A program made the translations under genes and the position numbers. The notes under the pieces were generated by a model. The model searched no databases. It was not told the DNA's origin and was given only the letters and a program-made list of their open reading frames with translations. A stretch of 64,000 bases of DNA from Haliotis cracherodii (Eukaryota): the NCBI RefSeq assembly GCF_022045235.1, contig NW_027266274.1, forward strand, positions 15,128,001 through 15,192,000, read 5' to 3'. Of the stretch, positions 18,201 through 64,000 are shown piece by piece (positions within the stretch are counted from its first letter, which is position 1; each line of letters starts with the position of its first letter).

Positions 18201-21200
18201 GATGTTTCAGGTGTTCTACCTATAGAGCATTTGTAATGTCAAGATGATGTTTCAGGTGTTCTACCTTAAGAGCATATATAATGTTAAGATGATGTTTCAG
18301 GAGTTCTACCTTAAGAGCATACGTAATGTCAAGATGATGTTTCAGGTGTTCTACCTATAGAGCATACGTAATGTCAAGATGATGTTTCAGGTGTTCTACC
18401 TGTGGAGCATACGTAATGTCAAGATGATGTTTCAGGTGTTCTACCTGTGGAGCATACGTAATGTTGAGATGATGTTTCAGGTGTTCTGCCTATGGAGCAT
18501 ACGTAATGTCAAGATGATGTTTCAGGTGTTCTACCTATAGAGCATACGTAATGTCAAGATGATGTTTCAGGTGTTCTGCCTATGGAGCATACGTAATGTC
18601 AAGATGATGTTTCAGGTGTTCTACCGCCTGCACGTGGCTATCCTGAAGCAGCTGCTGAAGAAGGATGGGATGGTGGACTACGAGCTGTTCCAGCACTACC
18701 TCACCGAGGCTGCCGAGAGTCCATTTGCAAAGGGCAAGGAGAAGAGGCATGAAAGGTGAGCTTTGTGCCAGTCTCACCGATTTGTCAGGTTCTGAAGATT
18801 GGAATTTTTGCAATGTTCCAGTCCCAGATTTCCCTGATTATGTTTCGGGTTTGTCAGCACCATACCCGTGCTTGTGACTTTAAACAAAGTGGTAAACGCC
18901 TGCATCACCTGGGGTTTCCCCCCAGATGTGATTATAGCTGAAATGTTGCTCACTTGGGTATATCATTCATTCCATCAGCGTTAATAACTCTGTGTAATGA
19001 TGTACATGTTTGATGCAGACGAGAGTCCCACTCTAACTCCATGGACGAAAGCTCCTCATCCAACCTCACCCCCCCAGCCTACAGCCAGCTGAAGGCCCGC
19101 CCTGTGTATCACATGACCCCCCAGGACCACACCTATTCCAAGCAGAAGAGCTCAGTGGACGGGTCGGACACGTCGTGTGATGTGGTCAAGGAAGTTCAGG
19201 GCAACGACAGCTCCCACTCCAAACCTGCAGCCGTGGCTGCTAAGGAGGGGCAGAAGTCGGAGGATAAATCTGGAAAATCGGAAAAAGAAGCTGAAAGCAA
19301 ACCTGAAGCCATGGAGGTGTCGAAAGATGGAGATTTGCTAAAGATCCAGAGACACGTGAGTACAGAATTTGTGCCCAAAGATGGGGATGTTACAGCAGGA
19401 GGTGCTGAACAGAAGTGTGTGGGTAAGGAATTGAAATCAATTCCTGAAGAAAAACGACAGAAAAGTGATTCACAGGACGTCAAAGCTGATAGTGCTAAGT
19501 CTGAAAGTGCTAAAGTGATGCCAGATGGGGATAAAGTGATGCCTGTTGATGATAAAGTGATGCCTGTTGATGATAAAGTGATATCTGGTGATGATAAAGT
19601 GATATCTGGTGATGATAAAGTGACATCTGGTGATGATAAAGTGACATCTGGTGATGATAAAGTGACAGCTGAGAAAGGCAAAGATGCTTCTGACCCAAGT
19701 GAAACAAAACAGAAAGACAAGGATGAGTTGAATGATAGTGTGTTGGTGTTAGATCCCGCCACTGGCCTGATGGTGCCTATGCTAGAGGATGACATGGAGG
19801 TTGATGACGTGATAGAATCTGTAGTCAGTGACAAGAGTAAAGCCAAGACTGTGGAGGATCCCGTGAAGGACCCCAAACCTGCTGCAAGTACTCCAGTCTT
19901 AGGTAAAGCCCCTCCTGTCCATGACATAGATGTTATTGAGATTAGTGATGATGAATCTTCAAATCCTGCTAAATCTACAGTATCCTTGTCCCTTAAGAAG
20001 CCATCTGACTCTTGTAAAGATTCTGAAACTAAAGTTGGACCTGAAGCCAAAAAAGAGCTTTTTGGAAAGGTTAAGGAGAATAGCACTAGTTCTAAAGACA
20101 CTCCGAAACGTGAAACCAAAAAGCCTGAGAAGTCTAAACCAGATGATGAATCACTTCATGATGAATCATCACGGTTGTCTGATAACTCGGATGAGTCGGA
20201 CTCATATCAGCAGGACTCCCTGGACACAGAGATCCTCCACACGGAGCTGATTGACAAGTGTGTAGACGCACTTCATCTGTGTGTTCAGCGCTTCCCCACT
20301 CACTACAAGTCTCTGTACAGACTGGCTCACGTATACATGACATCGCCATACCACAAGGTAAGACAGAAAACTTATGACATCATTATAACAGAACACCTGC
20401 ATGCAGATACGAGTAAGAATTGGTGTTCACGGTTGTGCTTGTCAAATAAAAACAGAATTGAGTGGTCATTCTTGCTGACTTGGTTGATGCATGTATTTGT
20501 ATCACAATGACGTAGATTGATGTTCATGATGTCAATCACTGGGTTATCTGGTCCACTTGATTATTTACAGACCATTGTTACATAGCTGTCATTGCTGAGT
20601 GCAGCGTTAAACAACAAACAGACAATATAACAGAACATTTATGTTTGCTTGTCGCTAATTAGTTATTAGTTTCTATAGTTGTACTCGAAAAGAATTCTGT
20701 CTGCAAAGAGTTTCATAACAATATATTTGGTTCTGAATTTCATTTGCCATGGTATCTGTTAGATAGTGTTTGCAAAGGTTTGAAAATATTTTGATTTAAT
20801 TGGTTTAATCTTGAAAAAGCAAAAGATTGATGCCTTTGATCTTTTCAAATTACCGTAAATACAGTGAAATCTTTAAAACTCACACACATTATATCGTTTC
20901 TTGACAGCACCCTTATTGATGACATTGTCAAAGATCAGCACTTTTGGACAACAGACCTTGATTTTATGAGGTTTTAAGTACTAAATGGAATGTGTTGAAC
21001 CATGTCTCTTTCTGCCACATTGAGACCATAGACAATGAGTTCTTCAGAGTTCTTGAGTCAGACGGTGATTTTAACATTTCGAGATTACCATGATTGCAAG
21101 TGTTGTGATGTTCTTCAGTAGGCAGTGTCAGGTACTGATTGTAGCAACTGTATGTTACAAAATATTAAGTTGTTGATAGGGCTGTGTATTGACCTAGATT

Positions 21201-35985: not shown

Positions 35986-35991
35986 TATAAA
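35986..35991 (+). promoter_or_regulatory. TATA box candidate for the Cys-rich GPI gene
   Basis: TATAAA 78 bp upstream of ATG 36064. Confidence 0.45.
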
Positions 35992-36063
35992 GGTCCACGT
36001 CCCTCATGCTGACAGCGTGTACCACGGCGGAGTCTGGCCAGGCAACAACCAGGTGCATACAGG

Positions 36064-39000
36064 ATGTGGACGTTGGTGGTGTTCCCTCTGCTTTTATGTG
36101 AGTTGCATTTATCAGTCGTTTTTTTTAATATACACGAATGTTAGTTAACTACTCAGGCACCAAAATAATACACAGTAGGAAAGTGAGACTCGTATTATAT
36201 TTATTCAATTCGCGAAGAGTTTTGTATGAAATTTCCATTTTGTGTAATTTTCATTAATTTACATTTATGTGGTATTGTATATTTGTTAAATTATCACCTA
36301 CGCCAGGCCTTAAATGAAACCAGGTTAATATGGGACTTCCTCCTCGTATATTCATTATTTGAATGAATATCAAAACTTATCATTTTAAGAAACCAGTCTT
36401 GCTTGACAACGGTATAAGGATCTATACCGAAACGTCGCTTTTCACAGTATTAAAGAAGTTGTTATCCATAAAAATTGTGTGTATCTATGTTTTTTAAACG
36501 TTAAAACTACTAATATGGATGGACTTAATGTTTCTAGACAGATTTGTTTTTTCTACTTTTTTAGGCGTCTTCACGGTAGGTCATGTAGCTGCTGAAGCTT
36601 GTGATACCTGTACCGAAACCTACAACACTGCTACGTCATCCGCAGATTCAGATGAGAACTGTGCGTAAGTAGTATAATCAACTTTCGTATTGTCATTATT
36701 GGATACCATGAATACGATGAATCATATATTATCACTTCTCTCTACTGTCAACATACATGTATGTTGTATCCATGGATGTTACAGGTTAAAGTAACTCTAC
36801 ATACAAATATATGACAGCTTTACAAATTCCAGACATTTTGAGTTTGTCGAAATAGGACAAATGTGTTATGAAAAGCGTATGTTTCAGACACCTGAAAACA
36901 TACTTGGATTGTCTCGAGACAGCAGCAGGAACATCTGCTGGATGTGACTTGGCAGCAACTCAAGCCACGAAAATCAGTGACGCTGTTTGTGGTAAGCACT
37001 TGTGAAGTAGCGTTCGTCGTTGTAATTTGGTTTATAAACGTCTCAATATAATACTCGACAACCGCGAACATGAGGCAGACACAATTACACTGGTTGTAAA
37101 GTCTCTGTGGATATGCTCTCCTTCCAATGTGCATTCCCAATTTGAATATGAATACTTATCTCGTCCATCTGTCAGTAATATACGTTGTACAACATCCCTC
37201 TGTTTTGCTTTAGTTGTATGAATAGGAATCACTGTGATCAAAGGAGAACGAGAAACTCGCTCTTGTTTCCTGGTTTAGTTTCAGTATCTAACAAAAATAT
37301 CCAATCGCTGTTTCCTTGTATGCCTTTCATCTCGCACATCTCGAAATTCAGTTTATATTCTGTACAGGAGAACGTCTGTGCCTTTTTCAGTTTCAGCTAC
37401 CTCCAGTATATCAGATCTGAATCATATCTGTATGAATGTACTCTAACTGTATCATGTTGTATCTTAATTTTATGACAAAAAATCAGTTCGGCAATTTTGG
37501 AAATGAATGAAACAGAAGGATTCCGTAAATGTCCCTGTTCTGATTTTAGACCCAGTTTTGGAGTCGCCCTGTACATGCCAAAAGACATTCTGGGCAAGCG
37601 ATCTATCCGGGAACAACGCATGCGGGTAAGTTTTCATATACTCTTCAACAATGTAAGATTAACATAATACATGTATTGACATATGTTTGCATATAGAAAC
37701 ATTATCGTCTCCATACATTCACATCTCATGTCAGCGGACAGCCTCCGTGGTCTAGTGGTAGAGCGTCCGCCCGGAGAGCGGAAGGTCTGGGATTCGATGC
37801 CCGGCCGCGTCATACCAAAAGACGTTAAAGGATGGTACTTGTTGTTACCCTATCTGGCGCTCGGCATTAAGGGGCTAAAACAAGGACTGGTCGGCTCGGA
37901 GTCAGTATACTGTGTCTGTGTGGGGTATCCATGTTAAACTGCGGCATGGTATCTCAGGGAGTTAGCACTATAAATCGGCATCAGTCCGGACTAGTACAAG
38001 CAGCCACACACACACACACACGTGCATGCACGTCGCTATATTAGTGCAATAATCTTGAACACGACGTTAAACCACATTTCACCTCACCTCATGTCAGCGA
38101 TTGTTTATTCGAAGTTACTTTCATGTAAGCATTATTGATATTACTTATATTTATATTATTAGTAACATAGCACACTGACATTATGTGATTTAGGCCGCTA
38201 GGGACCTACATCCAATGTCTCACTGACGCAGGAGAGAAAGATACATGCAAGACTGAAACCAAAGCCTCTGCTATCATAGACAAGCCCAAGGGGAGACTTG
38301 CAACTCTCACATGTAGTAAGTATCAGGCTGGTGGATAATGTCGAATGTCCATCTTGTACATTTAATTCAATTATATTCACACAATTTATATTTGCAGTTA
38401 ATAAAATGCTTTACGACAAGCAGCAAAAATACTGACAATTATTTTCTGATTTAAATCAATATAATATTCGTACGGAAATATACTTTGTTTCGGTTGAGAC
38501 TGTGTTCGCCTTATCTCTTCAACCAACAAGACGAAACATACATGTTGAAATATGAGAGATCCCATTTTGATGTTTTTATAGTTTGGTAAATACAGATGTC
38601 ATGTATCCCACTTTACGTGTGTTTCTGAAGCACAGAGATATTTTTTTTTATAAGTGAATACTTTTTTCTTGATCCTCATATACATTAATAAGACCTTACA
38701 ATGCCTACTAACAGTAGTAAGTTGTATTCGTCAGCGTTTGTCACGAACATTCGAAAATCTGTGTAGTGTGATATGGTATTAATTTTTCCTTTACGGAAGT
38801 GTTTACTTGACATTTACACCCTCTACTAACTGTACATGTCCGTACTTAGAGGCCTTTAGTTATTGAAAGCGAAGGATAGATTGCACGCTCTGTATCAGTT
38901 TTACATATACTCCATAAAGTGCAGTTCCCATAAAACCAAGCATAACGTACTCGACACACTGCTAGGACACAAAACAGGTCTAAACTATGAATGGAACTCA

Positions 39001-39737
39001 CACAAAAACTTAATACACTTATTATCAAGGTTTATAGCAGTAGATGGACAATTAGAGATTAAGTCGGAGTTCATGTTCTTGCTATCACAACAGTCAGTTT
39101 TAGATTTTGGTAATGAAGGTTGTTCGTCCAAACAGCATACATGTATTCGATATTATACATGGCTTTGATTATTTTTTATATAAGAAATCTAGTAATAAAG
39201 TTGTTACCTATTCATGTATCAATGACATAAGATATCCGTGAAGTAACATGCAAATATTGTTTTTGTCACATCATATGACGATATATTTTCCTATCTTTGA
39301 AATCAAACAAATATCAGTAGATTTGTGATAGTGCATATACAATATGCTTGTGAGACTTTCAATATGCAGATGTTGATGATTCACTGTCAAATAGTACTAA
39401 GCATGTCCTACCTCACCGGTGGTTCCTGTCATAAACACATGCAAAGGCAAATAAATTGTTAACCGGAACAAACACGAAACATATGGTCATGGGGACGTAA
39501 GTTTTGAGTCGGTTTCACTGGTATCTATAGTTTCTAGAACAGGTGGGTAAATCAGTGGAAGGTAATGGGCCATTTGAATAATATATCTAAAGCTTAAGTT
39601 AAACTTCTTGGCACCATACAAATGAGTGTAATATATTTAATATTTTCTGTTGTGCAGATGCTGCAGTTTCCACCCTGAGGATGTACACTGCGACCACTGT
39701 TGTTCTCCCCTTCGTCCTGATGGCGTTTCTTCTTTAA
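36064..39737 (+). CDS. Uncharacterised 171-aa signal-peptide, probably GPI-anchored Cys-rich protein with two internal repeats
   Basis: Exons 36064-36097, 36565-36664, 36888-36991, 37550-37625, 38194-38315, 39658-39737 (516 nt, all GT-AG, intron phases 1-2-1-2-1). MWTLVVFPLLLCVFTVGHVAA-EACDTC...CAHLKTYLDCL...C-DPVLESPCTC...CGPLGTYIQCL...C-NAAVSTLRMYTATTVVLPFVLMAFLL*. AATAAA at 40136. Confidence 0.8.
37736..38090 (+). mobile_element. tRNA-derived SINE family C; core resembles the Meta/MESC domain
   Basis: A/B boxes; CCGGCCGCGTCATACCAAAAGACGTTAAA...GGCATTAAGGG core; TSD CTCATGTCAGCG; copies near 10700-10925, 47460-47552 (-) and 61130-61452 (-). Confidence 0.8.
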
Positions 39738-40899
39738 CTCACAATGGATACTTTTAAAATGTAGTTGTATTTGAGTGTTTGTGTCTGGTCTGCATTAAAA
39801 CGTCACACTAAACGACATTCTGAATGAATCGTAATCATAACAATGATAAGTTCGGTGTTATACGATGTGTCGATTTTCATTGTCATTTCGATGAACTTAA
39901 GATGCTACAAACTTACTAAGGTGGCAAAACGACTCGTATTCAACTTATTTAGGCCCACCTGATGACGTTTTCTGATGACGTGGTTCTCCCCAAAAAGACC
40001 ACCGACACATAGAAAATGCCATCAACCCTTTAGACACTTTGATAGCAGAATAATAGTTTAGTGTTGTCATGATTTCCTTGAAATATGCAAGATGTGTCTT
40101 ACACGAATGTACTAATCCACCAGAAAATATTTTGGAATAAATTGCTATACTGGCTAAGATTGCATTATGTTATCAGCACTGCATCTATGGGAAAGAGTGA
40201 GTGAGTATGGGTTTTACGCCGCTTTTAGCAATATTCCAGCTATATTACGGCGGGGGACACCAGCAATGGGTTTCACACATTGTACCCATATCGGGAATCG
40301 AACCTGGGTCTTCGGCGTGACGAGCGAACGCTTTAACCACTACACTACACATAATATATGGTAAGTTATTGCTGACAGGTGGTCTTGTTGGGTAGTCATC
40401 ATCTGTACCATTCACAAGCAGCGTGACCACATGATACCTGTTCTAAACTATTGCTGCAAGGAGGAACTGTAGACTTTACCTTCCTACATATGTTTACTGC
40501 TTTGGTGAAACCCAGGACCATGCGTATGGAGCTTATATCAATGGACTACAATGGGGGCGAATCTATGGTTCAAACAGCACATCTGGTTTGAACAGTTCCT
40601 GCAAGAAGTAAAATACATACGACCAATCATTCACAGCAATCAGGAAAACTTCAATCTTTTTGTCGTAACTAATATTCATGCGATGTGTCAGCCGCTTTGA
40701 TTTGGTTCAGTTATCATGACAAGAATCTTCAAAACATCGGCTTTGTGATAAAAGAAATCATAGTGAGATGGTGTGTGCATCTTATACTTTTTCATACCGC
40801 TATCTTCACAAACAAAAGTCTGAAAAAAGCATGCCGACAGATAGTGAAAATAATGTATTGCATCAAACACCTGTTGGTCTCAGATGCGTCAAACTCGTA

Positions 40900-41700
40900 T
40901 ATGTCCTTCATTATTGAACGAGATCAGATTCTCTTCATTGGATTTTGCCAATCATGAACCGAGCAGACTCATATGCATAAAGAAACAGATCAGCAGGGAG
41001 AGGAGCACAATTGTTGTCCATTGGGATGCATACTTCTTGCCTAAATGTCCTATCCCTAAATTCTCATTGTCATCCATGAGAAAGTCCTTCATTGCATATA
41101 TTTTTTCTCCGGAAACTTCCCATGGCATTATGGCATTTTTTGTATGTTTTAACCTTTGAAGAAAAGTCACCACGTTTAGTAACCAATGAAGTTTTCCCTT
41201 AATTTTGTCGTGTGGGATAGTGGTGTTCAAAGGGGAAAAATCAATTGTTTTGACAGAATTGGACTTCGACTTCTCTCACATACTTTCTGTGAATATGAAG
41301 AAAGTCCTTCCTTGATGCTATTAGGGATTATGGTTGGCAGAGACAGGGATTTGCTGGAACTCACCAATATATATTTCTTTGTATGGTTTTGTATGGAGCT
41401 TTGGGATCCAGTACAAAGGATGAATGGACAAATATGTCTTCACGATTAGAAGCTAAGTCAAACGTTGATTGAACTGATGAATGGTTTTAGCATATTTCTT
41501 TCGCAATTAACATAGTTTGGATTAGTAGCAGGATTGCTTATTCATTGATCATTTGTTGTTGGACGGGATGCCTTCTACAGCCTCAAAATGGATGCAAGGT
41601 ACATCTGCAATTCTAGTCTAATGCCACCCCTTCCCTACTGATCTAGAGACAACCCTTACGAATTTAGAAAAGTTGTGCTTTATGAAGTGCAAGTATGGAA
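40900..41700 (-). mobile_element. Degenerate Penelope-like retroelement remnant
   Basis: Minus-strand LYWIPKLH-like motif near 41390-41420, similar to about 59120-59150; no intact frame. Confidence 0.45.
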
Positions 41701-44700
41701 TATAAACTTCCTTAATGTTTTAGAAAACGTCCTTTTGGTTCAGAGCCATATCTGTCCATGACATCACAGATTGATATCCAGAGTCCGCCATCGCCATCTC
41801 TGTTCTATTAGTAACATCGATCATCTCATGTACACACCTCCTTACTAACCGACTTTAATCAATCTGGTGTGAAATTAAGATGAATGTACTGAATACGACA
41901 CATCGTTTGTCAACATGATGTGCAAAGCTATCCGAGAGTAGGACCATCGCATAAAGATTTCATACCTCCTTACTAACCGACACTTACTTAAGTCAATCGT
42001 GTGGACGGCTTGACCACCTAAATATATCACTTCTGGTGAACAGCTTCACCGCTGATCATCTTTTACCTGACCGTGGACTTGCAAGGGATTCTTAGCATAA
42101 AGCAGTACATCTGAAAGATCCTATATGATGGTATATCTCAAAGAAATTGGTCTGTGTAAAAAGTCGTGAAAAACTGTAGTCATACATATTTGTATTCAAT
42201 ACTAAGCCGTAAAAGGCGACTATGCTTGTCTCGATTATTTTAGAGACCGCCGTCATATAGCTGGAACATTGCTGAGTGCGGCGTTAAACAACAAACCAAC
42301 CAGCCAACCAATACTAAGCAAGAGAGGATATTTGAAATCGATGTAATTCTTATTTGAAATAGCTATTTTACCTTCAACTTGCATACAGCATGAAAAGTCT
42401 CATTTTGCTTTTGAAGGCTTTTCGTATTTATCAACGTATTCACAAGCCAAATGTCCAACAGTATTCAGTTAGTAATACTGTGACTTTGGTTTTTGTTTGG
42501 AATGTCTTATTATTTTTAAAACGTTTTGCTTTTCTTGCATAAGCGTATAACACAATTTATTTGGGGGAGAGCATGTAATTAGAATTATAATAATCAGCAC
42601 ATAACTTGTGTCATGCCACTGACGGAGCTATGTTTACCGCATGCACATAATTACCAATCAGTCGAAACGCACCAAAGTCAGATATACACCAGATATAAGA
42701 TTTCATTCACAAGAACGAACAAATATGAATCTATACTTTTCTTACGTCAAAGTTTTAAAATTGACAATTATTGTCAAAAGTGAAATATCATATTCTCGAA
42801 CATGCATATTGACATTGGGTGTATTTTGCTATGGAGCATTTGTGCCATTGAAAGCGTGGTGAATTTAAATGTTGATTTCAAGTACCACGTCAGGGGGAAA
42901 GAAATGATTCACTCTCCATGCAAGATGGTCAGAAATATAGTATGTTGCACAGGCGACATGAAGGACGCTATGTGCAGTTTGCTTTCCATGGATTACTGTT
43001 ACACTGAGTAATCTGTTCGTGTCGAGACTACTTCAATTCAAAAGTAACTTAGTTAAGAATTTACTGCATCACTGAGTGTGAGCGGGGCAAAGTGTAAAAA
43101 GTGGGAACGGCTGTCTTCTGAATACAGAACAATTTATGGTTCTGAACAGTTGTGACGCATGGCAAATAAAACACTTGGCAGAGCTCAACTTTTAGTGCCA
43201 CCCTTTTCACGTTTGTGCCATGGATACTGTGGACATGCGCGGTCTTAATTGTACAGCTAGTGACTGGGAATATCTTTGTAGGGGGTGAATTTTAACAATT
43301 TAATGGCGTGTCCACACTTGCTTTTGAGATACTTAAACTTGGCATTGCCCCAGACAGTAAGTGAGTTGTCTGATATATTTAAGATCATATGGTTCACAGT
43401 TGTTTCACATATGACGTTGCTTCAAAACACAATTTCGAAATAAAGCTCCATTTCCATTGCTTTATACACACAAATACCGAAGGATATTGCGTCATTTTAT
43501 TAATATGTTGTCATATTGTGCCCATTTAATACAAATTGTTCAATAACAATGTTCCAAAATCTCACACACAAATGTTTTGAGACACTGTTTGTATGTTGTT
43601 GTTTAATGCCATAGTCAGCAGTTTTGTTTAAGATAATGAACCAGATATTGTTGTTTTGATGATAAGCATGTTCGAATGACGTCTTACACCGTCGGAGTAT
43701 GACGACATGCAATCCTCCACGACTTCGAGCCAGACTATACAATGCAATATAGTCGCTTAATTTGTATTCTAATGCTTTATGCTGTGATGAATATAAACAA
43801 GAAAAAGATGCCGTTTACACAATATAAAAATAAAATCATCAATTACTTTCCTCACTGCGTTTTATTGTCTATGTGTATAGTTATTTCTGGCCATCGGTTT
43901 TGAAGAAAGTCATCCTGTTAAAATCCATTCGAATTTGAGGTATTGCCAGTCTTGATTAGAATCTACATATATATTACATGTGCAAAGTTTTAACGACGCT
44001 TCTGAAGAAACTATACATGACCTCCAGACCATTAGGTTGTTGTTTACTCAAACTCGATTAAGGCCCACACAGACGGCATTGTATTTGCAAAGTTTTAACA
44101 TATGACCAGGGATTCTGAAAAGAAAGCTTGGCTCCTATAATTTAACAACCACACAAGTGACCCAAAAAGAGCATTTCTTTATTTTTTGGTTAATCTATTT
44201 ATTCCTTTTTCCATCATATTTTACATTTCGATATCATACATAGAGTATGCATGGATTTATTGTGACATTATTGGCATGTTTGTAGCATAGACAGATCAGA
44301 CATCATAGTTGTACAGAGTTTCTAAATAATACATGTAGAGAAGACCAGAAGGCATGGAACATGCATAATTACAAATTAAATATGCAATACAATCGAATTA
44401 TTTCTTTTTGAAAATGTAAAGACATTGGATTTACTTTTTTTCTATTAAATGTGTACAGCATAGATTTTGTTACCATAATTACTGCATTGAGTGAATTGTT
44501 ATTTTTCTCTTTAAATCCAAACAGTATGTGTTCATTACTAAAATTTATTCTGCCTTATGTATAGTTTCCAAGCCAATCTGAAAGTTCCATCCATATATCA
44601 GCAGCATAGTGACAATAACATAATAATTGAAGTGAGCATCTTCCCATACTTGATAAACACTCGCGTTCTTTAATAAAATTAAGTATCCTTTCACAAATGA

Positions 44701-46116
44701 AAACATATTTAGGACATAGTTTGTCAACTATGGCAACACGTGTATTGTCTGTAGTATCACTGTGGGGTTAGTGAGCAAACTGTTGATTTAGACATGTGTT
44801 CCGCTATGATAAGCAAATCACATTTTTCGAAATAGTGTAGGACATCATCTACTGCCCACGGAACACTTACATCTAAAAAGGTACAAAATATTTACTTGGG
44901 TATGACCAGAATAACGTCTCAATTTGAAATGTTTACTTCAATAAACTTAAATATGGTCGTCAGGCTACTTTAGTTAGATAAAGATTTTATTATTCTATTC
45001 TTCCAACTATCACTTTAACACCATTAAATCACTTCAGCGTACCTCTCAAGCGCTACGTGGGGGTCATACGACTGAATCACCCTCTCGTAAGTTCGCTTGT
45101 TGCTCAGCAAAATATAAAGGACCCAAAACATTTTGTGGCGCCTCCAACAGCAATAAATTGTTGTTACGTCATGTAATCTATTCGAGTTGTTTTTCCACTC
45201 GGCTTATCACCTTCAGTTCGGATGTATCTGAGTTCAGAATTACACCGAATTGCTGTGAGTTGGGCAAAATGTAAAAGGCGCAAACAAACGTCATGTTAGT
45301 GCAGGGCAATTTATCATTGTGTGCCACAGTTGTGACGCACAGACAAACAAAACACCAGGGTGGGGATAAGGGTTGAACCTATGCTTGTTAGATACGGTGG
45401 ATATGTTTAAATTTATGATGGCCATGTGCAAGGTGGACAAACAATATGTTTAAAAAATAGACATACTTGTATTGAGCCATTGAACAAGACATGTCTGTAC
45501 ATGGTTGTGTGATACTGGGAGTTGTTGAAGGAGATATAACCCACACTGTGAGTAATTTACTCTCTTAGTTTAACTATTCTTTAAGTTCCCTGCACCAGTG
45601 TGCATGTATGCTAACAGGGAAACGTCAACACCAGATAATAATCAGTCGTGATTGTCTGTCGAAATCAATTCCATAAGGCGTGACAGGCAAAATATTGTTG
45701 AAAAGTGTATAAATGAATCCCTTAAAGTGATTGATGACGCTTGGTCTTCGCGAACAGTTACACGATTAGTGATAGAGAATTCGACTGATTGATTTGTGAT
45801 ATTTCATATTGCTTATGGATTCGTACTTAGTTCAGGATGATTGAACTTGAACACTTCACATGCATCTAGCCATTTATATACGCTTTATACGTTCTAATTA
45901 CATACATTAATTATAGTTGGTTGTCAGTCTCTCAAACACTGTGCATAAATTTCACAACTTTCGCCAACAGTGCAACTTATGAATTTAAGTGAAATGCGTT
46001 AATCAATGCTTTTTACTGACGCAGTTGTCTTAAAGCCCCAGCACTGTTATCACAAGCTTTCTTTAAATAAATAAATCATTTTACTATTAAATGTAAAACC
46101 GTGTGGTATATATCGA

Positions 46117-46131
46117 CCCCCCCCCCCCCCC

Positions 46132-46200
<69 letters not shown>
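46117..46200 (+). repeat. Poly-C run plus (CA)n microsatellite
   Basis: Read directly from the sequence. Confidence 0.97.
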
Positions 46201-46203
<3 letters not shown>

Positions 46204-48069
46204 GTAGTATCTTGATGGAGGACAACTCTCATTGTTCTACCCCATATAAATCCTAAAACTAGTGCAGTGTTGGATTTACAGGCTCTGGGATAATCGTGGA
46301 CCATTTATTTGAAGAGCACCTCCTCAATGGCTGCTAGGATGAATGCTTGATTTTGTTAAAAAGGTTGCACGCTGTACAAATCTATGTGTTGAAATAACGT
46401 TCGTTGATGACTGCCATGCTGTGAATACCATGTAAACAGTTTTAAGATTTGAAGAACGATTTCTTCTTGCAAACATCACGTCTTTTGATCTTAATAAAAC
46501 TAACCTCGCAAACACAAAATAATAATCTTTATGTAAGGTCATTATTTAGTTTTATTACATTTATTACAAACAATCATATCACACACGATCCCACCAAGCA
46601 CTGTGAAGTGTCCTGGGAGTTAGAATTTCTGTTGTATTCATCTACTTAGAAATACTGAACCAAGTCAGTAATCTTCAAGCAGGGAAAATGTTGCATTAAC
46701 AATAGAACTATAAAATTGACATTATTCCGACCAACATACACACATGCATGCACGTTGCTAAATAAGTGCAATAATCTTGGACTCAACGTCAAACCCGATT
46801 TCATCTCACCCAATTATCACAGGGACAATGTAACACGTCAATCCTAAATTGGTGATAATGAGGACAGTAAGTCACTCACATGTTTCAATCAAGTGTTTAC
46901 CACAACGTGTGAGCTGAATACTTGAGGCAACACAAAAGTGATGCAGGTTTAAGAAATCTCATTTTTGTTTGATTATAAGTATGATGCATCTTCTGTCAAA
47001 CCCACCACCAACACATCCTAGCTAACCCAACCTTGCAAATCAAGTAACTGATTGTCCACAATGTTTCTAAATCTGAACGATGATTGTACTATTACACAAC
47101 AGTGTTGAAAATACACGGAAGTTAGATTCACCTTATGTAAGAAAAACAGACCATATATGCATTACTATCTACAGAAGTAGCAAATCTCCGACTGTATCAA
47201 AAGCATGTGTATCCATCCCTATCGGTGGCACCCATCACAAACTCGTGCAAAGGCAAGTCAATCCTTCACCTGAAGAACACGGGAACATATGGTATAAATC
47301 AAAGTAGGGAATTGAATAGGACATGATGTTTTGTTGCCGATTCGTCATATTTCGATACGCCCTACATATGTCTACCATTTGAAAGATTAATGCACTTATA
47401 CTAGTCCAGATTATTGCCGATTTTAAAGTGTTAACCAACTGAGATTCCATGTCGCATGTTCAATGTCTTTTGGTATGACGAAACCGGGGGTCGAACCCCG
47501 CGGATTCAACTCTCTAGGTAGATGCTCTACCGCTAGACCACGGAGGCGGTCTGTTACCTATAAGGAAGTACAGCACTTTATGTTTTCTTTTCTCAGTAAA
47601 CTTCTCATAACATTTGCTTTCATTTTTGACAAATTGTCTTGAACAAATGCATTAATTAAGAGGCACATGTAAATCACTGCCCCCTAATTACTAACAATAA
47701 AAACATACCGAATATCACATAGACACAGAACAAAGTGCCTCAATTATAATATGCATACTAGTTCGCTTCATTTTCTCCAATACAGACAATACTATAAATA
47801 TATGCAATAATATTATGTTAACTCTTGTCAAACAGACTTCTTCCTTTGTGTATTTTTGGGGCGGTCGGGTAGCCTAGTGGTTAAAGGGTTCGCTCGTCAC
47901 GCTGAAGACCCGGGTTCGATTCCCGACATTGGTACAATGTGTGGAGCTCATTTCTGGTATCCCCCGCCGTGATATTGTTGAAATATTGCTAAAAGCGTCG
48001 TAAAACCATATTCACTCACTCACTCACTTAGTGTATTTGCGATTTATTACTGAGTACAGCAGGATTATA

Positions 48070-49434
48070 TACTGAACCGAAAAAGAAACGTCACTATTTG
48101 TCCAAACACTGTAAAAATACTTTGAGATATATTAAAAGATGACACTTGGCAAAATCATCAAGGTTGAAATTAAAGTGTCAAATTTTCTTAAAGTGAAACA
48201 CAATACTAGTCTCTGAGAAAATGGCATCACAAGTCAGTATCTCGTGTGTCCGCCATGTGAATTGATGACAGTCGTGCAACGTCAACACATGGAATGAATG
48301 AGGCGGTTGATGAAGGTATAGGACTTGAACCCACATCCTGAGAAACTCCTGACCCAGTTCAGCTGCAGTTGACGGCCTTGGTCGGACGTCATTCAGCCGT
48401 CTTTGAATCTCGTCCCACAGGTGTTCAATGGGATTTAAATCGGGACTGAGGGCAAGCCACTGCATGGTTGTGCTGCCATTCTGACTGAGGAAGTCTCTTG
48501 TTGCTCACGAAGTGTGGGCACGGGCGTTTTCATGTTGAAACTCGTGGTTGCGGCGACGTGCCAAATGAGGTATGGCGTGTGGTCTCAAGACTTGATCAAA
48601 GTACTGAGCTTCTGTGACACCATTGCCTCTCTCTGGACCGATGTTCTGGAAGACCACAGGGCCGACCCTCTGTGCAAGACCAATTCCACCCCACGCCATG
48701 ATTTCTCTGCCATCTGCTGTTGAGATACAATAACGGCTCTCGTCTGAGAAGAGGACTCTTCTCCTCTGTTGGTGGCGCCAATGCTTGTGTTGTGTTGTCC
48801 ACTGAAGATGGTCCCGGCGATGACATGGCGTCAGAATTGGTCCTCGGTGTGGCCTGTGACTGTGGAGGTGTCTGCTCGTCAATCGTCGACGCACGGTGTC
48901 CACACTAATGTGTTGCTGCCGTGTCCCCATGGTCTGTCGAGCAGTTTCCGCAGCAGTAACAAAGCGATTTTGAAGATGCTGTCGCACATCTGTAGTTTTG
49001 GTGGTCTGGTACCGTTGCTGGAGCCTGCATATGGTCCCTATGTGGACTTGAAATGCAATGGCTACTTCCCGCGCAGTTTTTTCAGCTTCCAAAAGTCCAA
49101 AGGCTTGGTGTCGCTGATTTCTTGTCAGTCTTGGCATGTGGTAGCAATTCAATATCGAGTGAATGTTATCCGATCTGGGTGGATTTTTATAGCGCAAGAA
49201 ATGGGGAAACGCATGTGCATTTCAATTTGCATGGAACTCACGCGCCTGGGTTGCCGTGATGCGTTTGGGCGATCGGTTTTATTGTCATTTGCTTTGTTTT
49301 ATTAGCATCAAATTTTATTTTTCCGGACAAGGTAATGTTAAATTTTATAAACTTTGACAAAAAAATCCCAGATATTTAAGTGACAACTTTTCATGCAATG
49401 CTTGTTGGGGTGAGGTTTCTTTTTCGGTTCAGTA
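48070..49434 (-). mobile_element. Tc1/mariner (DD34E-type) transposon with both termini and a disrupted transposase
   Basis: TA target duplication; TIR TACTGAACCGAAAAAGAAAC / GTTTCTTTTTCGGTTCAGTA; MPRLT..HTH start at 49137; FSDESRY, FQHENARAH and SPDLNPIEHLW split across frames. Confidence 0.93.
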
Positions 49435-49970
49435 TATTTGGGTATGCTTAGATCAATGCACTAACTTTACAAACATAGCTCTTGTTGTTATCTTTTTTTC
49501 TGGCTTATGTAACAGTGTACGTAGCACATATCAACATATCTAGCATGATTAGTGTCAGTATTGATATACTTCACTCAACTTCTGTGTGACCATTTGCTAT
49601 TTTGGGTATTAATGTATTGTTTTCTTCACGGGATAATAGTACCATTGCGATTTATGCCAGTAAAAATTATATTCTCGCTCAAATTCGAATTTAGTAAGGC
49701 ATAATCAAGGTAAGCTCATGGTATGGTTTTCGTCCGTGGTCCATCTGACCATTTCAATATTATTTTCATATAACTTGCCCTACACACCAGACGTAAACGT
49801 TTCATTGATCTAATGTTATGTGAATTTGAAGTCTGGCTGATGAACATGCACTGAATCACCACACAGTTGGTTGTGCAATGCATTTATATGAATCTGGGTG
49901 GACATTTGGATTGTGGAAAACACAGTGCACACATGTGACGAACACAGACCGGTCGCTATGGCATCGTCCC

Positions 49971-49980
49971 TATATAAAAG
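49971..49980 (+). promoter_or_regulatory. TATA box candidate for the EGF-repeat gene
   Basis: TATATAAAAG about 75 bp upstream of ACCATG at 50047. Confidence 0.6.
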
Positions 49981-50046
49981 ATGATCGTAATAGGATCTAT
50001 ACCTGTCGGGGTATGAGAGAGGACTGAACAGCTGCTGTTTTCAACC

Positions 50047-53000
50047 ATGAAAGGTTTTACAAAAACAGTGTTGTTCTTGGGTAAGTGACTCTTCTAGTAT
50101 GTATAGACCGTCATGTGACTTTTTAAAATTTTGTTTTATTTTCAGTTTGATGCGTTTGGGAAAATGGTGTACACATGTTGTATACTAGATGGAACAAACA
50201 TGAAATGAAAGATGAACTATATTCATAGTATAAGTCATCATGTAAATATAAAAAAATAAAAATCTAAAATGTAATTATCTTGTGGGCATGCCTGGAGAGA
50301 GAAGGTTGCCAGTTTCTCATGTTTGTCAAGGTCATCTAAAGAGGTAGGTCAGGCTTAGAAACTTTGTTGTTTGTATGTCATCGTACCCGTATAGATCGTT
50401 TCTAAAGGTGTTAGGAACGTTTTTGACAGGTTCAGACTGGACAAATAATGTCATAACTGACAATAAAAAGTAACGACATAATACTAGTTCCTTTCATGAA
50501 TGAACACATCCTCTTCCAGGTGTTGCCGCCACCATGTACGGCACTGCACTACAGATTCTACATGCAGCGAACATGGAACCTGTGAAACAGATAAGACGTG
50601 CACCTGTGACACTGGTTACATTGGTGACTTGTGTCAACATGGTAAGCCACATTTAATATTATGAACGTTTAGAACGAAAATGAAACCTTGAAACATCTTT
50701 TTAAGACCAGCGCTGGGAATTTAAAGTAAACTGTTAACATCGCTTTGAAAGTCGCTTAAAAAGTAAAGCAGAAACTCATTTTCTAATTTGTTTATTTTTT
50801 TGTTGAAACATGTTTGACCTTTTCGAGAACACATGGCCTCATCACTATTTGATAATGATTCATAAACAAATGAAAACGATATTGTTGAATCCGTACAATG
50901 GACTCTGCCTTAAGCATTAACGTCTTATGATAATGGAAATATTATTTTTTCACATTCATTTGCAGATGTAAATTGCAAATGCTTCAAAAAGATCAAGCCC
51001 AGGTTTTCACAACTGACACTTATTGCAGGACAATAGTTATACAAAAATGATTAAATAGATAGAATATCACAGAAAGAATAAATAGATATCACAAAATAAA
51101 TAGACAGCATATTTATGACAATAACTGAATCATTTTTTAGTTCTTAAAATATATACACCTTCATAATCAAATATAAGTTCATTTACTTGTAATGTTTTAA
51201 AGTGAAGATCTGTGTGATTCAAATATAAATGATTGATGAAAGTCTAATGAAACATGTAACCTGTAACCTTTCTGGTAGCATTCAAATATCTTTTCTAAGG
51301 GTTTTGTCATTGTTACTGTATACAACTTTCCCATACTTCAGATGCACAATCCAAAAGCGATTATATTCGCTGTTTATATTTTTAGCATAAATCTGACATT
51401 GCTGATATTGGACAAATAAATTGAGATCAAACCCTGTGGCATTCAATCATGTTTGATACTGTACGAAATTCACAGTTCTGTATATCCATTCATTATAAAG
51501 CACCGAAACAGGCAATGGCGACTTTACCTTTACAAATCACCAGTATTTGCTCTGTAAAATATAACCCAAGAAGCTTTACATGTTACACAATCTTCAATTT
51601 CACTGAATCAAAAGTAACTCTTTCTCACAGTATGCCTTAATGAAATCAAACAAAACTAATATGTATGAAATTACGTTTGAAAAAAGTATGTGTTATGACA
51701 AGTTGATATTCGGGTGCCAAAAGTTGTCTGACATCGGTTTCAGCATTCAAGGCCTTAGTAAGGCATTATTGTAGCGAAATGTATAGTATAAACACCTTAA
51801 ACGAATGGTTCATGTCACTATATACGAAACACAATACACCTTTAACTAAGAATTAACAATGCATGTATTTCCCATTTACTTAAGACCTCAAGTAATTTGA
51901 CAAAAAAAAATGAGTTTTCACATTTCCGTTCCCACTGGGTGTTACCGGTAGAGCGGGACACAGATCAGTGGAATCTTTGTTCCCGATTCGATTCTTTACA
52001 TGTTTGGCATGTTTGTTTGTTTGATGTTGAACGACTCACTCAGGAATGTAATATCCACCTGCATATCCTGAAAATAGCCGAGTCTGTGCAGACTTTTATG
52101 GGATTTATATTTTAGGTGCAATGATCTTTCTGGTGGGGCACAATGACGTTAGTGGTTACAATGGTGTGCATGAAGGCTGAGATCATTGAATGGATCAACC
52201 ACTGGTTTGTCTGGTTCATACTCAAGTTGCTGAAACAACAGTCACGTGGCTACGGTGTTGCTATCAAATGCTCACTTTAACTTTAAATGCATTACATGTT
52301 ACAGCTTCCCAATGCGACGCTGACACAGATTGTCAGAATGGTGGAACCTGTGACAAAAATAGTCCCCAGTATCTTTGCAACTGCGTCCCTGGTTATGGAG
52401 GAGACACATGCAATCTAGGTACGTTTATATGACTGGTGACCATGTCAGCCATAGATTCTACTGGACAAACTAAAATGTTGTTAATGTGGATGGGCTCTCA
52501 TGCAAGGCAATCTCAATGTTGTGTACAGTGCCTAAAATTCATTGCACGTGTTTAATTACCTGGCTACAGACAATATTTCTCCTTATATTACTAAATACGT
52601 ACATGAGAAAGAGCTCTGCAAAATCAACTGTTTATGTCCGTTAGAGTTCCTGGTGCAGTTGAGCAATCCTTTGGAACAACATACTAGAGACATGTTGAAA
52701 CATCTTAAAATTAATACTATCGTATTTATGAAACAGTTTTATTGTTTTCCTGTTGTAAATAAGGACATAGATACACTACTGCCTAAAAGTTCATTCCCCT
52801 AACACGCGTTGAGAGCCACAGTGATGAATAGTGTTATCTTTAGAAATGTCTTCAACGAATGATAATAATTACTGCAAAACAACAACTTACAAAATCCAAC
52901 ACATATGCTGCTTTCATAGACATTCCAACCCTTAAACACATTTATCTCATTACCACTTAACGAGCAAGGTGTGATAAAGGCTCTTCTTCACCCACTGGAT

Positions 53001-55118
53001 CCGCATAAACGACGAAGTCATCAAAACGTTAAGAGACTCTCATGACAGTCAACAGATATGAACCTGTGAATCAGATCTTGATCTTGCCTGTTTGCAGTTA
53101 TGACATCACCTAATGCAGTTAGAAGGCTAATCTGCCCTGAAAGAATGATTTTAGGGGTTTTCAGTGACATATTTGTAATGTTTGACTCACGCTGATTGTC
53201 TTCCAAAATGCAGATAACAACAGTACAAACAGGAGCAAATCATTTTGGCTTATAGAATTGCTCACAGTTAGATTTCCCTTGGAAGCTTCACTTATTTATC
53301 CACTTCTTTAATACTTGAACATGCAGGAAGTAAACGAAGTGCATGTGTGAAAAAGATTATGTAATTTCCATATCATTATTACACAGTTTTCTCGAACGTA
53401 TTACAAATTTCTATTTCATACTCAAGTTGTTAAGTCATAACAGTCATTTTGCTGCGATGTAGCTGTTAAATACACACTTCAACTTTTAATGCATTGCATG
53501 TTACAGCTCCCCAATGCGACGCTGACACAGATTGTCAGAATGGTGGAACCTGTGACAAAAATAGTCCCCAGTATCTTTGCAACTGCGTCCCTGGTTATGG
53601 AGGAGACACATGCAATCTAGGTACGTTTATATGACCCGTGACCATGTCAGCCATAGATTCTACTGGACAAACTAAGATGTTGTAAATGTGGATGGGCTCT
53701 CATGCAAGGCAATCTCAATGTTGTGTACAGTGCCTAAAATTCATTGCATGTGTTTAATTACCTGGCTACAGACAATATTTCTCCTTATATTACTAAATAC
53801 GTACATGCAAAAGAGCTCTGCAAAATCAACTGTTTATGTCCGATAGAGTTCCTGGTGCAGTTGAGCAATCCTTTGGAACAACATACTAGAGAAATGTTGA
53901 AACATTTTAAAGTTAATACTATCGTATTTATAAAACAGTTTTATTGTTTTCCTATTGTAAATAAGGACATAGATACACTACTGCCTAAAAGTTCATTCCC
54001 CTAACACGCGTTGAGAGCCACAGTGATGAATAGTGTTGTCTTTAGAAATGTCTTCAGAGAATGACAATAATTACTGCAAAACAACAACTTACACAATCCA
54101 ACACATATGCTGCTTTCATAGGCATTTCAACCCTTAAACACATTTATCTCATTGCCCTTTAAAGAACAAGATATGATAAAGGCTCTTTTTAACCCACTGG
54201 ATCCACATAATCGAAGAAATCATCAAAACGTTAAGAAATTGTCATGACAGTCAACAGATATGTACCTGTGAATCAGAACTTGATCTTGCCTGTTTGCAGT
54301 TATGAAATCACTTAATGCATTTTGAAGGCTAATCGGCCCTGAAAGGAAGATTTTAGGGGTTTTCAGTGACATATTTTTAATGTTTGACTCGCGCTGATTG
54401 TCTTCAGAAATGTAGATAACGACAGTAAAAACAGGGGCAAATCATTTTGGGTTATAGAATTGCTCATAGTCAGATTTCACTTGAAGTTTTACTTATTTAT
54501 CCACTTCTTTAATACTTGAACATGCAGGAAGTAAAAAAACGTGCATGTGTGAAAAAGATTATGTTATTTCCATATCATTATTACACAGTTTTCTCTTACG
54601 TATTACACATTTATATTTAATACTCAAGTTGCTAAGACAACAGTCAAATTGTTGCGATGTAGCTGTCAAATGCTCACTTCAGCTTTTAATGCATTACATG
54701 TTACAGCTCCCCAATGTGACGCTGACACAGATTGTCTCAATGATGGAACCTGCGACAAAAGTAGTGATCAATATCTTTGCAAATGCGCCCCTGGTTATGG
54801 AGGAGACACATGCAATCTAGGTACGTTTATATGGCCCTTGATTCCTAGTGGACAAATTATGTTGCTCTAATGCAAGGCAATCTGAATATTGTGCCTGAAG
54901 AAAAACTACTCACACTTCACAACATAAGGAAATGACGACCAATTCATCGTTTTCGATTATTGCTTTCCAAGATCACTGAACATTAAATAATTGAAAACGA
55001 ACAGATCATGAATGTAACATCAATGTACTGTATTTCAGCTTCTGGTGCTGCTAAGGTATCGGTGCATCTCCTGCTTCTCACGGGTGTCGCTGCCCTTGCA
55101 AAGCTGAACCTCAACTGA
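50047..55118 (+). CDS. Small signal-peptide, probably GPI-anchored protein with four EGF-like domains; apparent 1-nt frameshift in exon 2
   Basis: Exons 50047-50080, 50520-50641, 52305-52418, 53507-53620, 54707-54820, 55039-55118. EGF motifs CTTDSTCSEHGTC..CTCDTGYIGDLC and CDADTDCQNGGTC..CNCVPGYGGDTC. C-terminus SGAAKVSVHLLLLTGVAALAKLNLN*. AATAAA at 55597. Confidence 0.78.
52215..54890 (+). repeat. About 1.2-kb tandem duplication (2.2 copies) carrying a 114-nt phase-1 EGF exon
   Basis: Exon starts 52305, 53507, 54707; intron sequence also duplicated (ORFs 52542 and 53744 nearly identical). Confidence 0.95.
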
Positions 55119-55689
55119 ATACATCCGGACCGGAATACGACGTCTTGTAGATACATATTGCGTTTGATGTTGTGATCATTAACCGCAGATACACATATCT
55201 AATAGGAGGGGCTGGGACATATTCGACAAATTATTTGCGTTTGTTTGCCCAAAAATTGTCTATAATTGTTAATTTGTTTGACAACATATCACTATATGGT
55301 TCATGTTTTTTAAACCTCATTATCTTTTGTAAACATCCCTATTCTGCATGTCAATGATTCCTAACAAGTTGAATATTATTACCTCACTGTAGCTAAGAAG
55401 ATAAAATTCCTTGATAGTTTTCGGCCACTGATGACATGTTACTGATGACGTGGAACTCTCTCCCAGTGACCACTGACACAGAGTAAATGTTATCTACTTC
55501 TTATCTACAGTGACAGTGAACGATTGTTACCTACCCACCCAAAGTGTGTTGTCCCATTATCCTGTATCGTCTGATGCATCGTGTTTAAACCATATGAATA
55601 AAACAGGAAGGCAAGAGATTTCACGTGTTACGTTGTGTATTTGGCGGAGAGTTTCGACATAACGATAACTTGATAACTTTAAATAAAAA

Positions 55690-62830: not shown

Positions 62831-63049
62831 CCTTAGTGATTAAATGTGTGCAATAAAGTAGCTTTGAGCGTTTTTCTTCGAAAATGTTCTTGACACATTG
62901 CCTGACATTGATTCTTTCTGTAGCTTCAGCTTAAAACACAACCTGTCTCTAATTTTTTGCATAGTGCAAGAGATACATATGGAGGTTCATCCTCATCACA
63001 TCAAGAGGATATTAATGAGAATGACCTTATCATATCTTAACTAACATCT

Positions 63050-64000
63050 CCGCCAGGCCTAAACGAATCAGGTTAATGTGGGACTTCCTCCTCTTATATT
63101 CATTATTTGAATGAATATCATAACATCATATTTTGAAGAAACCAACTTTATTTAACATTAAAACTACTTATATGGATGGACCTAATGTTTCTAGACAGAT
63201 TCGTTTTTCTTATTTTTCAGGCAACTTCACGGCAGGTCATGTAGCTGATAAGGTGAGTGAGAATGATTTTACGCCGCTTTTAGCAATATTCCAGCAATAT
63301 CACGGCGGGGGACACCAGAAATGGGCTTCACACATTGTACCCATGTCGGGAATCGAACCCGGGTCTTCGGCGTGACGAGCGAACGCTTTAACCACTAGGC
63401 TACCCGACCGCCCTGTAGCTGATAAGGACTCTGCGTAAGTAGTATAATCAACTTTCGTATTGTCATTATTGGATACCATGAATATAATGAATCACATATT
63501 GTCACTTCCCTCTACTGTCAACATTCATTTTATGTTGTATCAATGGATGTTTCAGGGTAAAATAAACTCTCCAAACATATATAAGACAGTAGGACAAATG
63601 TGTCATGAAACACGTATGTATCAGACACCTGAAAGTGTACTTGGATTGTTTCGAGACTGCAGCGGGAACATCTGCTGTATGTGACTTGGCACGCGCGCGT
63701 CGCTATATAAGTGCAATAATCTTGAATACGACGTTAAACCCCATTTCCCCTCACTTCATGTCAACGATTGTTTATTTATTCGAATTTACTTTCATGTAAG
63801 CATTATTGATATTACTTATATTTATATTATTAGTAATATAGCACACTGACATTATGTGTTTTAGGCCGCTAGGGGCCTACATCCAATGTCTCCCTGACGC
63901 AGGAGAGAAAGATACATGCAAGACTGGAACCAAAGCCTCTGCTCTCGTAGACAAGCCCAAGGGGAGACTTGCAATTCTTACATGTAGTAAGTATCAGGCT
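63050..64000 (+). pseudogene. Disrupted paralogue of the 36064-39737 gene
   Basis: Matches 36300-38330 including introns; SINE A inserted in exon 2 (TSD TGTAGCTGATAAGG); exon 2 shortened; about 1.07-kb deletion removes the end of exon 3 and exon 4; exon 5 counterpart at 63865-63986. Confidence 0.85.

Follow-up and report, generated by a model that had tools for sequence, protein, structure and literature searches.

Cassette shuffling as the likely source of a lineage-specific family of putatively GPI-anchored proteins in abalones

We analyzed a 64,000-nt stretch of the Haliotis cracherodii genome (contig NW_027266274.1, positions 15,128,001 to 15,192,000, forward strand; hereafter the window), in which two neighboring plus-strand genes, one with six-Cys repeats (gene A) and one with EGF modules (gene B), carry a similar block, predicted to form a hairpin, in their 3′ untranslated regions (3′UTRs). 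Positions are those of the window unless another contig is named. Gene A starts with a TATA box (TATAAA, 35986..35991) located 78 nt 5′ of the ATG at 36064 and comprises six exons with an intact 171-aa frame and exon phases of 1, 2, 1, 2 and 1. Coding exon 1 (36064..36097; 34 nt, phase 1) encodes the start of a signal peptide, which is completed in exon 2 (36565..36664; 1-2) together with the first half of repeat 1. Exon 3 (36888..36991; 2-1) supplies the second half of that repeat, and exons 4 (37550..37625; 1-2) and 5 (38194..38315; 2-1) supply the two halves of repeat 2, so that each six-Cys repeat occupies two exons with a phase-2 intron inside and phase-1 introns at both borders. The last exon (39658..39737; 80 coding nt, phase 1, stop TAA) encodes a tail resembling a glycosylphosphatidylinositol (GPI) signal and is followed by the hairpin (39959..40024; cores ATGAC at 39975-39979 and CGAC at 40003-40006) and an AATAAA at 40136..40141. 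The gene A protein matches RefSeq XP_071104792.1, named Haliotis cracherodii; its precomputed Pfam field was empty, the Pfam scan itself covering 11 relatives. A damaged copy of gene A begins at 63039 and runs to the window end (63039..64000, plus strand), with a short interspersed nuclear element (SINE) in exon 2, a shortened exon 3 and no exon 4; the last exon and hairpin belonging to it are found 1.6 kb past the window end.

Gene B has a TATA match at 49971..49978, 76 nt 5′ of the ATG at 50047, a 34-nt phase-1 coding exon 1 (50047..50080) and a 122-nt exon 2 (50520..50641) that contains the end of the signal peptide and an EGF module of sequence type a. Three further EGF exons follow at 52305..52418 (114 nt, 1-1), 53507..53620 and 54707..54820; these three of the four EGF exons are recent near-copies at a 1.2-kb period, consistent with tandem exon duplication, whereas the H. 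rufescens counterpart has four different EGF modules. The last exon (55039..55118; 80 coding nt, phase 1, stop TGA) again encodes a GPI-signal-like tail and precedes the hairpin (55428..55495; cores ATGAC at 55445-55449 and TGAC at 55474-55477) and an AATAAA at 55597..55602. Exon 2 carries a 16-nt deletion near 50541 and shifts the frame, so that a stop codon is reached as exon 3 ends; the corresponding exon of a paralog is 138 nt long. Among four public DNA runs compared, a spanning contig of run X5 contained the 16 extra nucleotides, spanning contigs of runs X2 and X3 showed the short form seen in the window, and run X6 yielded fragments of both forms. Because both forms occur in DNA runs, gene B in this assembly is most likely a segregating null allele rather than an assembly error, with a very close paralog as the alternative. 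No RNA data set was listed as containing gene B, a result that speaks neither for nor against its expression. An earlier interpretation of the window made from the letters alone (the sequence-only reading) had set two six-Cys repeats against four EGF modules; this description fits the intact gene A, and gene B as assembled, being frameshifted, does not encode a signal peptide, four EGF modules and a tail.

The sequence-only reading had further noted that the two genes share TATA boxes about 75 bp before the ATG, 34-nt phase-1 first coding exons, 80-nt phase-1 last exons and a 3′UTR block, and all of these features were present in both genes. The block similarity was above chance: between gene classes, block identity was 0.69-0.78, compared with 0.51-0.61 for flanking UTR and 0.50 for shuffled sequence, and the block was the sole part still alignable. 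BLAST searches of the genome with the gene A and gene B blocks placed 15 of 15 and 24 of 24 matches on contig C11, and a profile search of 1.26 Mb fetched from C11 yielded 41 copies; counts from genome searches for the full block are lower bounds. A phase-1 hydrophobic last exon of the family type was located 184-428 nt upstream of 37 of the 41 blocks, and of the remaining four, three were additional incomplete copies located near another block and the fourth was degenerate. A divergent version of the block that retains the AUGACGUGG...CCACUGAC core occurs in at least 14 copies on contig C7; all four C7 copies examined stand behind hydrophobic last exons, and the one viewed in full is that of a six-Cys gene with multiple repeats. 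The full block was restricted to 3′UTRs of the family on C11 and C7. As the sequence-only reading had predicted, a search with the block led to further hydrophobic-tail genes with varied inner domains, namely six-Cys, EGF, calcium-binding-type EGF, hybrid and TSP1. The block is therefore real and marks a family of dozens of abalone genes. No description of this gene family or of the hairpin was found in the literature searched, in which subscription papers fell mostly outside coverage. On C7, a second large set of six-Cys genes with variable repeat number was also observed at about 5.6, 16.7, 20.9-21.4 and 28.9-29.5 Mb, of which at least 14 carry a longer hairpin version whose loop starts with AA in some copies.

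The block could instead be a dispersed repeat or a SINE remnant unrelated to such genes, the finding that the sequence-only reading had named as one that would refute it. A loose 15-nt core pattern gave 71 matches against 10 in the control, and most scattered core matches inspected fall in an old SINE-like repeat with the 20-nt spacing of the C7 copies. Against this, the SINE-like repeats lack the YGAC core, similarity of the C7 copies to them does not extend beyond the search pattern itself (0.21-0.22 in the flanks, 0.37 in the spacer), and a covariance model gave no score to four other off-contig pattern sites. Since 37 of the 41 full blocks follow a family last exon, their position largely refutes an unrelated repeat, which we regard as extremely unlikely. 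Twenty of the 71 loose-pattern matches were fetched, and those off C7 look like old SINE copies or chance; candidate matches on C6, C26, C45 and C56, unscored by the covariance model and lacking a family exon, were rejected. The old SINE-like repeat is scattered (for example L156-L159, L161 and L162) and has a core, ATGACGTGG-N20-CCACTG, in common with the C7 hairpin. It is possibly the ancient source of the hairpin element, whose core may thus descend from an ancient SINE. Separately, tandem 86-nt repeats holding TGATGACGTG...CATCGAC, unscored by the family model, were seen on the minus strand at C26:2695799-2698187 and 2779610-2780314.

The domains encoded ahead of the block are diverse. By automatic labeling, 12 of the 41 blocks follow six-Cys modules only, 18 follow EGF modules, one follows both and 10 were unlabeled, the last group consisting of one TSP1 gene, three loci with a calcium-binding-type EGF exon (two of the three frameshifted) and six blocks at which no payload was found. 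EGF-bearing genes of the family contain one to six EGF exons, and 63 EGF exons fell, at an arbitrary cut-off, into 18 sequence types whose arrangements include abbb, acdd, gfff, gkflkf, qrqr and ppppp. The hybrid gene (C11:15626973-15616955, minus strand) has an open frame encoding a signal peptide, two six-Cys repeats, one EGF module and the tail, and the H. rufescens RefSeq protein XP_046328082.2 shows the same architecture and tail. The TSP1 gene (C11:15400627-15411453, plus strand) is open over 237 aa and combines a 73-nt signal exon of its own with three 1-1 exons of 189 nt each. At the 3′ end, the last exon together with the adjoining intron end aligns with the gene B counterpart (z 12-13), and RefSeq model XP_071104961.1 joins the same exons, the join being known from gene models. 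The modules are flanked by introns of matching phase: EGF and TSP1 exons are 1-1, and the six-Cys module is a 1-2/2-1 pair. No 5′ ends were found for the hybrid-type 3′ fragments at 15448113 and 15534086 or for the three calcium-binding-type EGF loci.

One six-Cys gene (C11:15359525-15365405) contains four repeats through internal duplication, of which RefSeq models only the first two, without the tail, and an intron of a six-Cys gene holds a near-perfect 129-nt inverted repeat (L005:73-201) resembling a miniature inverted-repeat transposable element. Genes with TSP1 exons are interleaved with the family on the minus strand of C11 at 15.74, 15.83 and 15.89 Mb, and another lies at 8.46 Mb (minus strand); no UTR block was found near any of them. 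Some carry exons that we labeled chitin-binding-like by eye, and these TSP1-plus-chitin-binding-like genes are possible candidates for the donors of the TSP1 exons.

A GPI-type pattern, consisting of an N-terminal signal, a small-residue omega region, a spacer and a hydrophobic C-terminal tail, was recognized in 37 of the 41 loci from pattern and hydropathy only. The proteins of the family are thus likely to be GPI-anchored at the cell surface.

We then compared the two ends of the genes. A promoter and first-exon motif connects the six-Cys genes with the hybrid and with some of the EGF genes (z mostly 5-23, a few pairs lower). One 5′ cassette (351-443 bits) recurs in three genes whose three 3′ cassettes do not align with one another; conversely, one 3′ cassette (531-707 bits) recurs in five genes that have four non-aligning 5′ cassettes. 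Homologous flanking exons and introns are therefore joined to non-homologous domains, as seen in the TSP1 gene compared with gene B, in the hybrid gene and in the 5′/3′ incongruence. In a tree of the UTRs, the EGF-type 3′ ends, including that of the TSP1 gene, grouped together (96/100) and were separate from the six-Cys groups, and the hybrid type stood on a long branch; the root was weak.

A rival account is plain descent with loss, in which an ancestral gene with helical and EGF modules was split by domain loss, and tandem duplication and gene conversion produced the remainder with no exchange of cassettes. The existence of the hybrid in two species, the separation of six-Cys-only from EGF-only genes on the UTR tree and the low dN/dS values given below all fit this account. 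It leaves unexplained why the TSP1 gene is nested within the EGF-type 3′ group, and it leaves the 5′/3′ incongruence unexplained as well, although gene conversion at the 3′ ends could produce a partly similar pattern. On this evidence we consider plain descent improbable.

Several observations nevertheless weigh against cassette exchange or limit its reach. The promoters and first exons of genes A and B showed no alignable homology (z 0-1); the last exons align weakly, with 28 of 80 positions identical (z 3-4). A promoter profile detected none of seven other 5′ cassettes and missed the 5′ end of gene B, and for one C7 six-Cys gene no hairpin was found within 3.6 kb. Outside the genes matched in RefSeq, exon linkage means adjacency, and one key 5′ exon is 11.6 kb from the next exon. 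The first-exon scan retained only phase-1 lengths with a TATA box, and because it selected for both, the phase-1/TATA regularity of first exons is partly built in. The GPI assignment was made by tail pattern and hydropathy. On the weakly rooted UTR tree, genes with six-Cys modules only and genes with EGF modules only are not intermingled; because the two groups separate, the helical/EGF switch looks like one old event, and it seems to have happened once rather than through ongoing swapping. Finally, the ratio of nonsynonymous to synonymous substitution rates (dN/dS) was 0.47, 0.44 and 0.20 in the three sets computed, all below 1; the variety of the family therefore appears to come from rearrangement, with no sign of positive selection.

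Because the 5′ and 3′ ends reassort among EGF genes, the gene frame is best described as a set of exchangeable phase-1 cassettes and not as one fixed shell. The single conserved secretion and anchor frame proposed by the sequence-only reading thus does not hold, given this reassortment and the unalignable 5′ ends of genes A and B. Its idea of a cluster diversifying by exon swapping and multiplication survives for the EGF exons, which were multiplied and mixed, and needs amending in two respects: there was no sign of diversifying selection in the sets computed, and the helical/EGF switch appears to be single.

The six-Cys module was next compared with known domains. Its predicted structure is all-helical, with a predicted local distance difference test (pLDDT) score of 76. 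Pfam RGM_N was matched in four of the 11 relatives scanned at 9-10.5 bits, under the cut-off of 24.2 bits. A profile of 22 six-Cys repeats scored the genome's own RGM-N at 22.4 bits, compared with a maximum of 12.5 in 500 Cys-fixed shuffles; RGM-N was chosen for this test after the weak Pfam matches had been seen. An hhalign comparison of the six-Cys module with RGM-N gave a probability of 37%. Foldseek on PDB returned nothing at E up to 0.001, further searches with the six-Cys model gave no clear match (best Z 5.9 in a second comparison and 7.2 in a wide search), and RGM was not among the matches listed by the wide search. The six-Cys profile found only cytochrome c6 among PDB sequences (E about 0.5), and the top ESM Atlas scores were below 0.9 (neuritin 0.77), which we treat as leads only. 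A search of 1.84 billion proteins returned nine matches, of which eight were credible, all from Haliotis.

The RGM N-terminal domain (Pfam PF06535; PMC7354924) likewise has six cysteines and is helical, as in our model, and RGMs are GPI-anchored. In contrast to RGM, the abalone module occurs in tandem repeats without the RGM C-terminal domain and scores far under the Pfam cut-off, and the RGD-loop/His residues that contact BMP, as described in PMC7354924, are not evident in the abalone repeats. The vWD-like C-terminal domain of RGM is absent from the 171-aa frame of gene A. Because this domain is absent and the BMP-contact residues are not evident, the module is not called RGM; with remote homology supported by the profile, it is best termed RGM-N-like.

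The 3′UTR hairpin was analyzed across the family. In 36 aligned copies, 93.6% of cells pair, a value reached by none of 500 shuffles and compared with 35-53% in slid controls; one pair varies between GC, GU and AU with no breaks, and variation is mostly toward G-U. Among 44 copies including those of C7, the AUGAC core is present in 42 and the YGAC core in 40, the two lie 10-28 nt apart, and the loop between them is not conserved. The lower stem beats shuffles in 43 of the 44 copies, also where the C7 lower-stem sequence differs. An RNA structure is less favored by two results: both sides of a pair changed in only 2 of 17 pairs, the pair-count shuffle ignoring relatedness, and the sense stem energy beats the antisense in only 21 of 44 copies.

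The lack of strand preference in stem energy is one reason to ask whether the block is kept as DNA. In that case its core TGATGACGTGG would be a bZIP site of the CREB3/XBP1 type in a downstream enhancer for secretory-cell expression; this is the main rival for the element and is compatible with shuffling. The 5′ core is indeed the most invariant stretch of the block. However, what is conserved along with it in the 3′ arm is a YGAC on the same strand and not an inverted site, the flanking arms pair even where their sequence differs, substitutions favor G-U pairs, and the block is always in the sense orientation at its usual distance behind the stop. We consider the DNA explanation fairly unlikely.

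The core also resembles the selenocysteine insertion sequence (SECIS), and we evaluated whether the hairpin could be a working SECIS that recodes the terminal UGA and extends the tail. The AUGAC and YGAC cores stand in SECIS register, and 27 of 37 C11 last exons end in TGA. The core geometry is that of SECIS with its tandem G-A pairs, but human SECIS elements have a 14-15-bp helix 2 plus loop (PMC2761289), which the spacing of the abalone cores does not match. The AUGA/GA core above helix 1 is present; a 14-15-bp helix 2, an apical AAA/G or CC and a selenocysteine UGA are absent. An Rfam scan of six loci with E up to 10 gave no SECIS or other family at the block, and no TGA occurred at a Cys position of any real module exon. 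The element is also retained behind TAA or TAG stops in gene A, in nine other C11 genes and in all four C7 genes examined, and the read-through frames past the stop are not conserved between gene groups. A recoding function is accordingly very unlikely. The hairpin core is nonetheless of the SECIS type in geometry, as judged from its sequence, with an upper part that is too short.

SECIS elements and the Tcf7l2 SECIS-like element (PMC2761289, PMC10783607, PMC1874613) likewise form a stem-internal loop-stem in the 3′UTR with a 5′ AUGA and a 3′ GA. The abalone hairpin differs in an upper stem of about 4-9 bp, in an apical AA that is not conserved, in the lack of a selenocysteine codon in its genes and in being carried by a whole gene family. 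SBP2 binds kink-turn-like motifs (PMC1874613), and increased translation of a non-selenoprotein mRNA has been reported for a SECIS-like element (PMC10783607). We are inclined, with modest confidence, to the view that the block acts as RNA, as a non-recoding, protein-binding kink-turn-like element. More tentatively, it may be a truncated, selenocysteine-free SECIS-type kink-turn fused to the GPI-signal exon as a portable 3′ cassette, from which any recombined domain exon would gain both an anchor and translational or localization control via SBP2/SBP2L or another L7Ae-family protein. If so, the portable cassette would provide a combinatorial surface-receptor kit in abalones.

Other features lie outside the family. 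A Tc3-type transposase remnant (48505..49221, minus strand) lies between genes A and B and belongs to neither. Upstream of gene A, a long multi-exon gene at 8973-29659 (plus strand) gave no informative Pfam match; its motifs resemble those of CABIN1. Minisatellite arrays occupy 1840-6400, 13519-14587 and 17800-18774, with periods of 26-27, 48 and 45 nt, respectively. At C12:80.17-80.25 Mb (L182-L191), at least 18 near-identical TGF-beta-family genes stand in tandem at a period of ~4.2 kb, and the best PDB match of one of them is a Nodal/BMP2 chimera; the array may reflect either a genuine expansion or an error of assembly.

Taken together, these results make it probable that genes A and B belong to a tandem abalone family built from a 5′ signal cassette, phase-1 modules and a 3′ anchor/hairpin cassette, whose members arise by unequal recombination in phase-1 introns. 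In the order that we propose, an ancestor with six-Cys repeats and the hairpin, as on C7, would have gained an EGF exon; one lineage would then have lost the helical exons and multiplied its EGF modules. Repeated EGF duplication and end-swapping would have followed, and TSP1 exons would later have captured an EGF-lineage 3′ cassette, once. New members would be generated by unequal recombination in phase-1 introns, and the products would display binding domains on a GPI tether. The hairpin, traveling with the anchor exon, may bind protein as a kink-turn-like element and so place these mRNAs under a common post-transcriptional control.

Phase 1-1 exon shuffling of extracellular modules such as EGF and TSP1 is known, and classic cases likewise involve symmetric phase-1 module exons inserted or multiplied behind a signal-peptide intron. 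The abalone family differs in that both ends are also exchanged within one genus-level cluster and that the helical module is a two-exon unit. EGF-CFC proteins (Cripto) and other small GPI-anchored EGF proteins also combine a signal peptide, an EGF module and a GPI-type tail, whereas the abalone genes lack the CFC domain and vary from gene to gene in EGF number and type. A cone-snail 'toxi-driver' system (PMC13542836) similarly involves gastropod genes that arose by phase-1 intron recombination beside signal-peptide exons and were recognized through a UTR held in common. In the snails this is a 5′ UTR, which drives the expression of secreted peptides in the venom gland; in the abalone family, by contrast, the shared part is the 3′ anchor exon with its 3′UTR hairpin, and the products are presumed surface proteins.

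Cassette shuffling is thus well supported for this lineage-specific family, whose proteins are likely to be GPI-anchored. The mechanism itself was already known; the novelty lies in the portable hairpin and in how complete the series of intermediates is. Most inferences of exon shuffling start from ancient end products, whereas here the intermediates adjoin one another in one genus: genes of a single class, a hybrid gene, a TSP1 gene acquired by capture, genes with reassorted ends, an exon triplicated recently and a null allele that probably segregates. Because they stand side by side, the steps of shuffling can be traced. The hairpin outlasts recognizable protein homology, has no Rfam match in the six loci scanned, and offers a direct test case for SECIS-like kink-turn roles outside selenoprotein synthesis.

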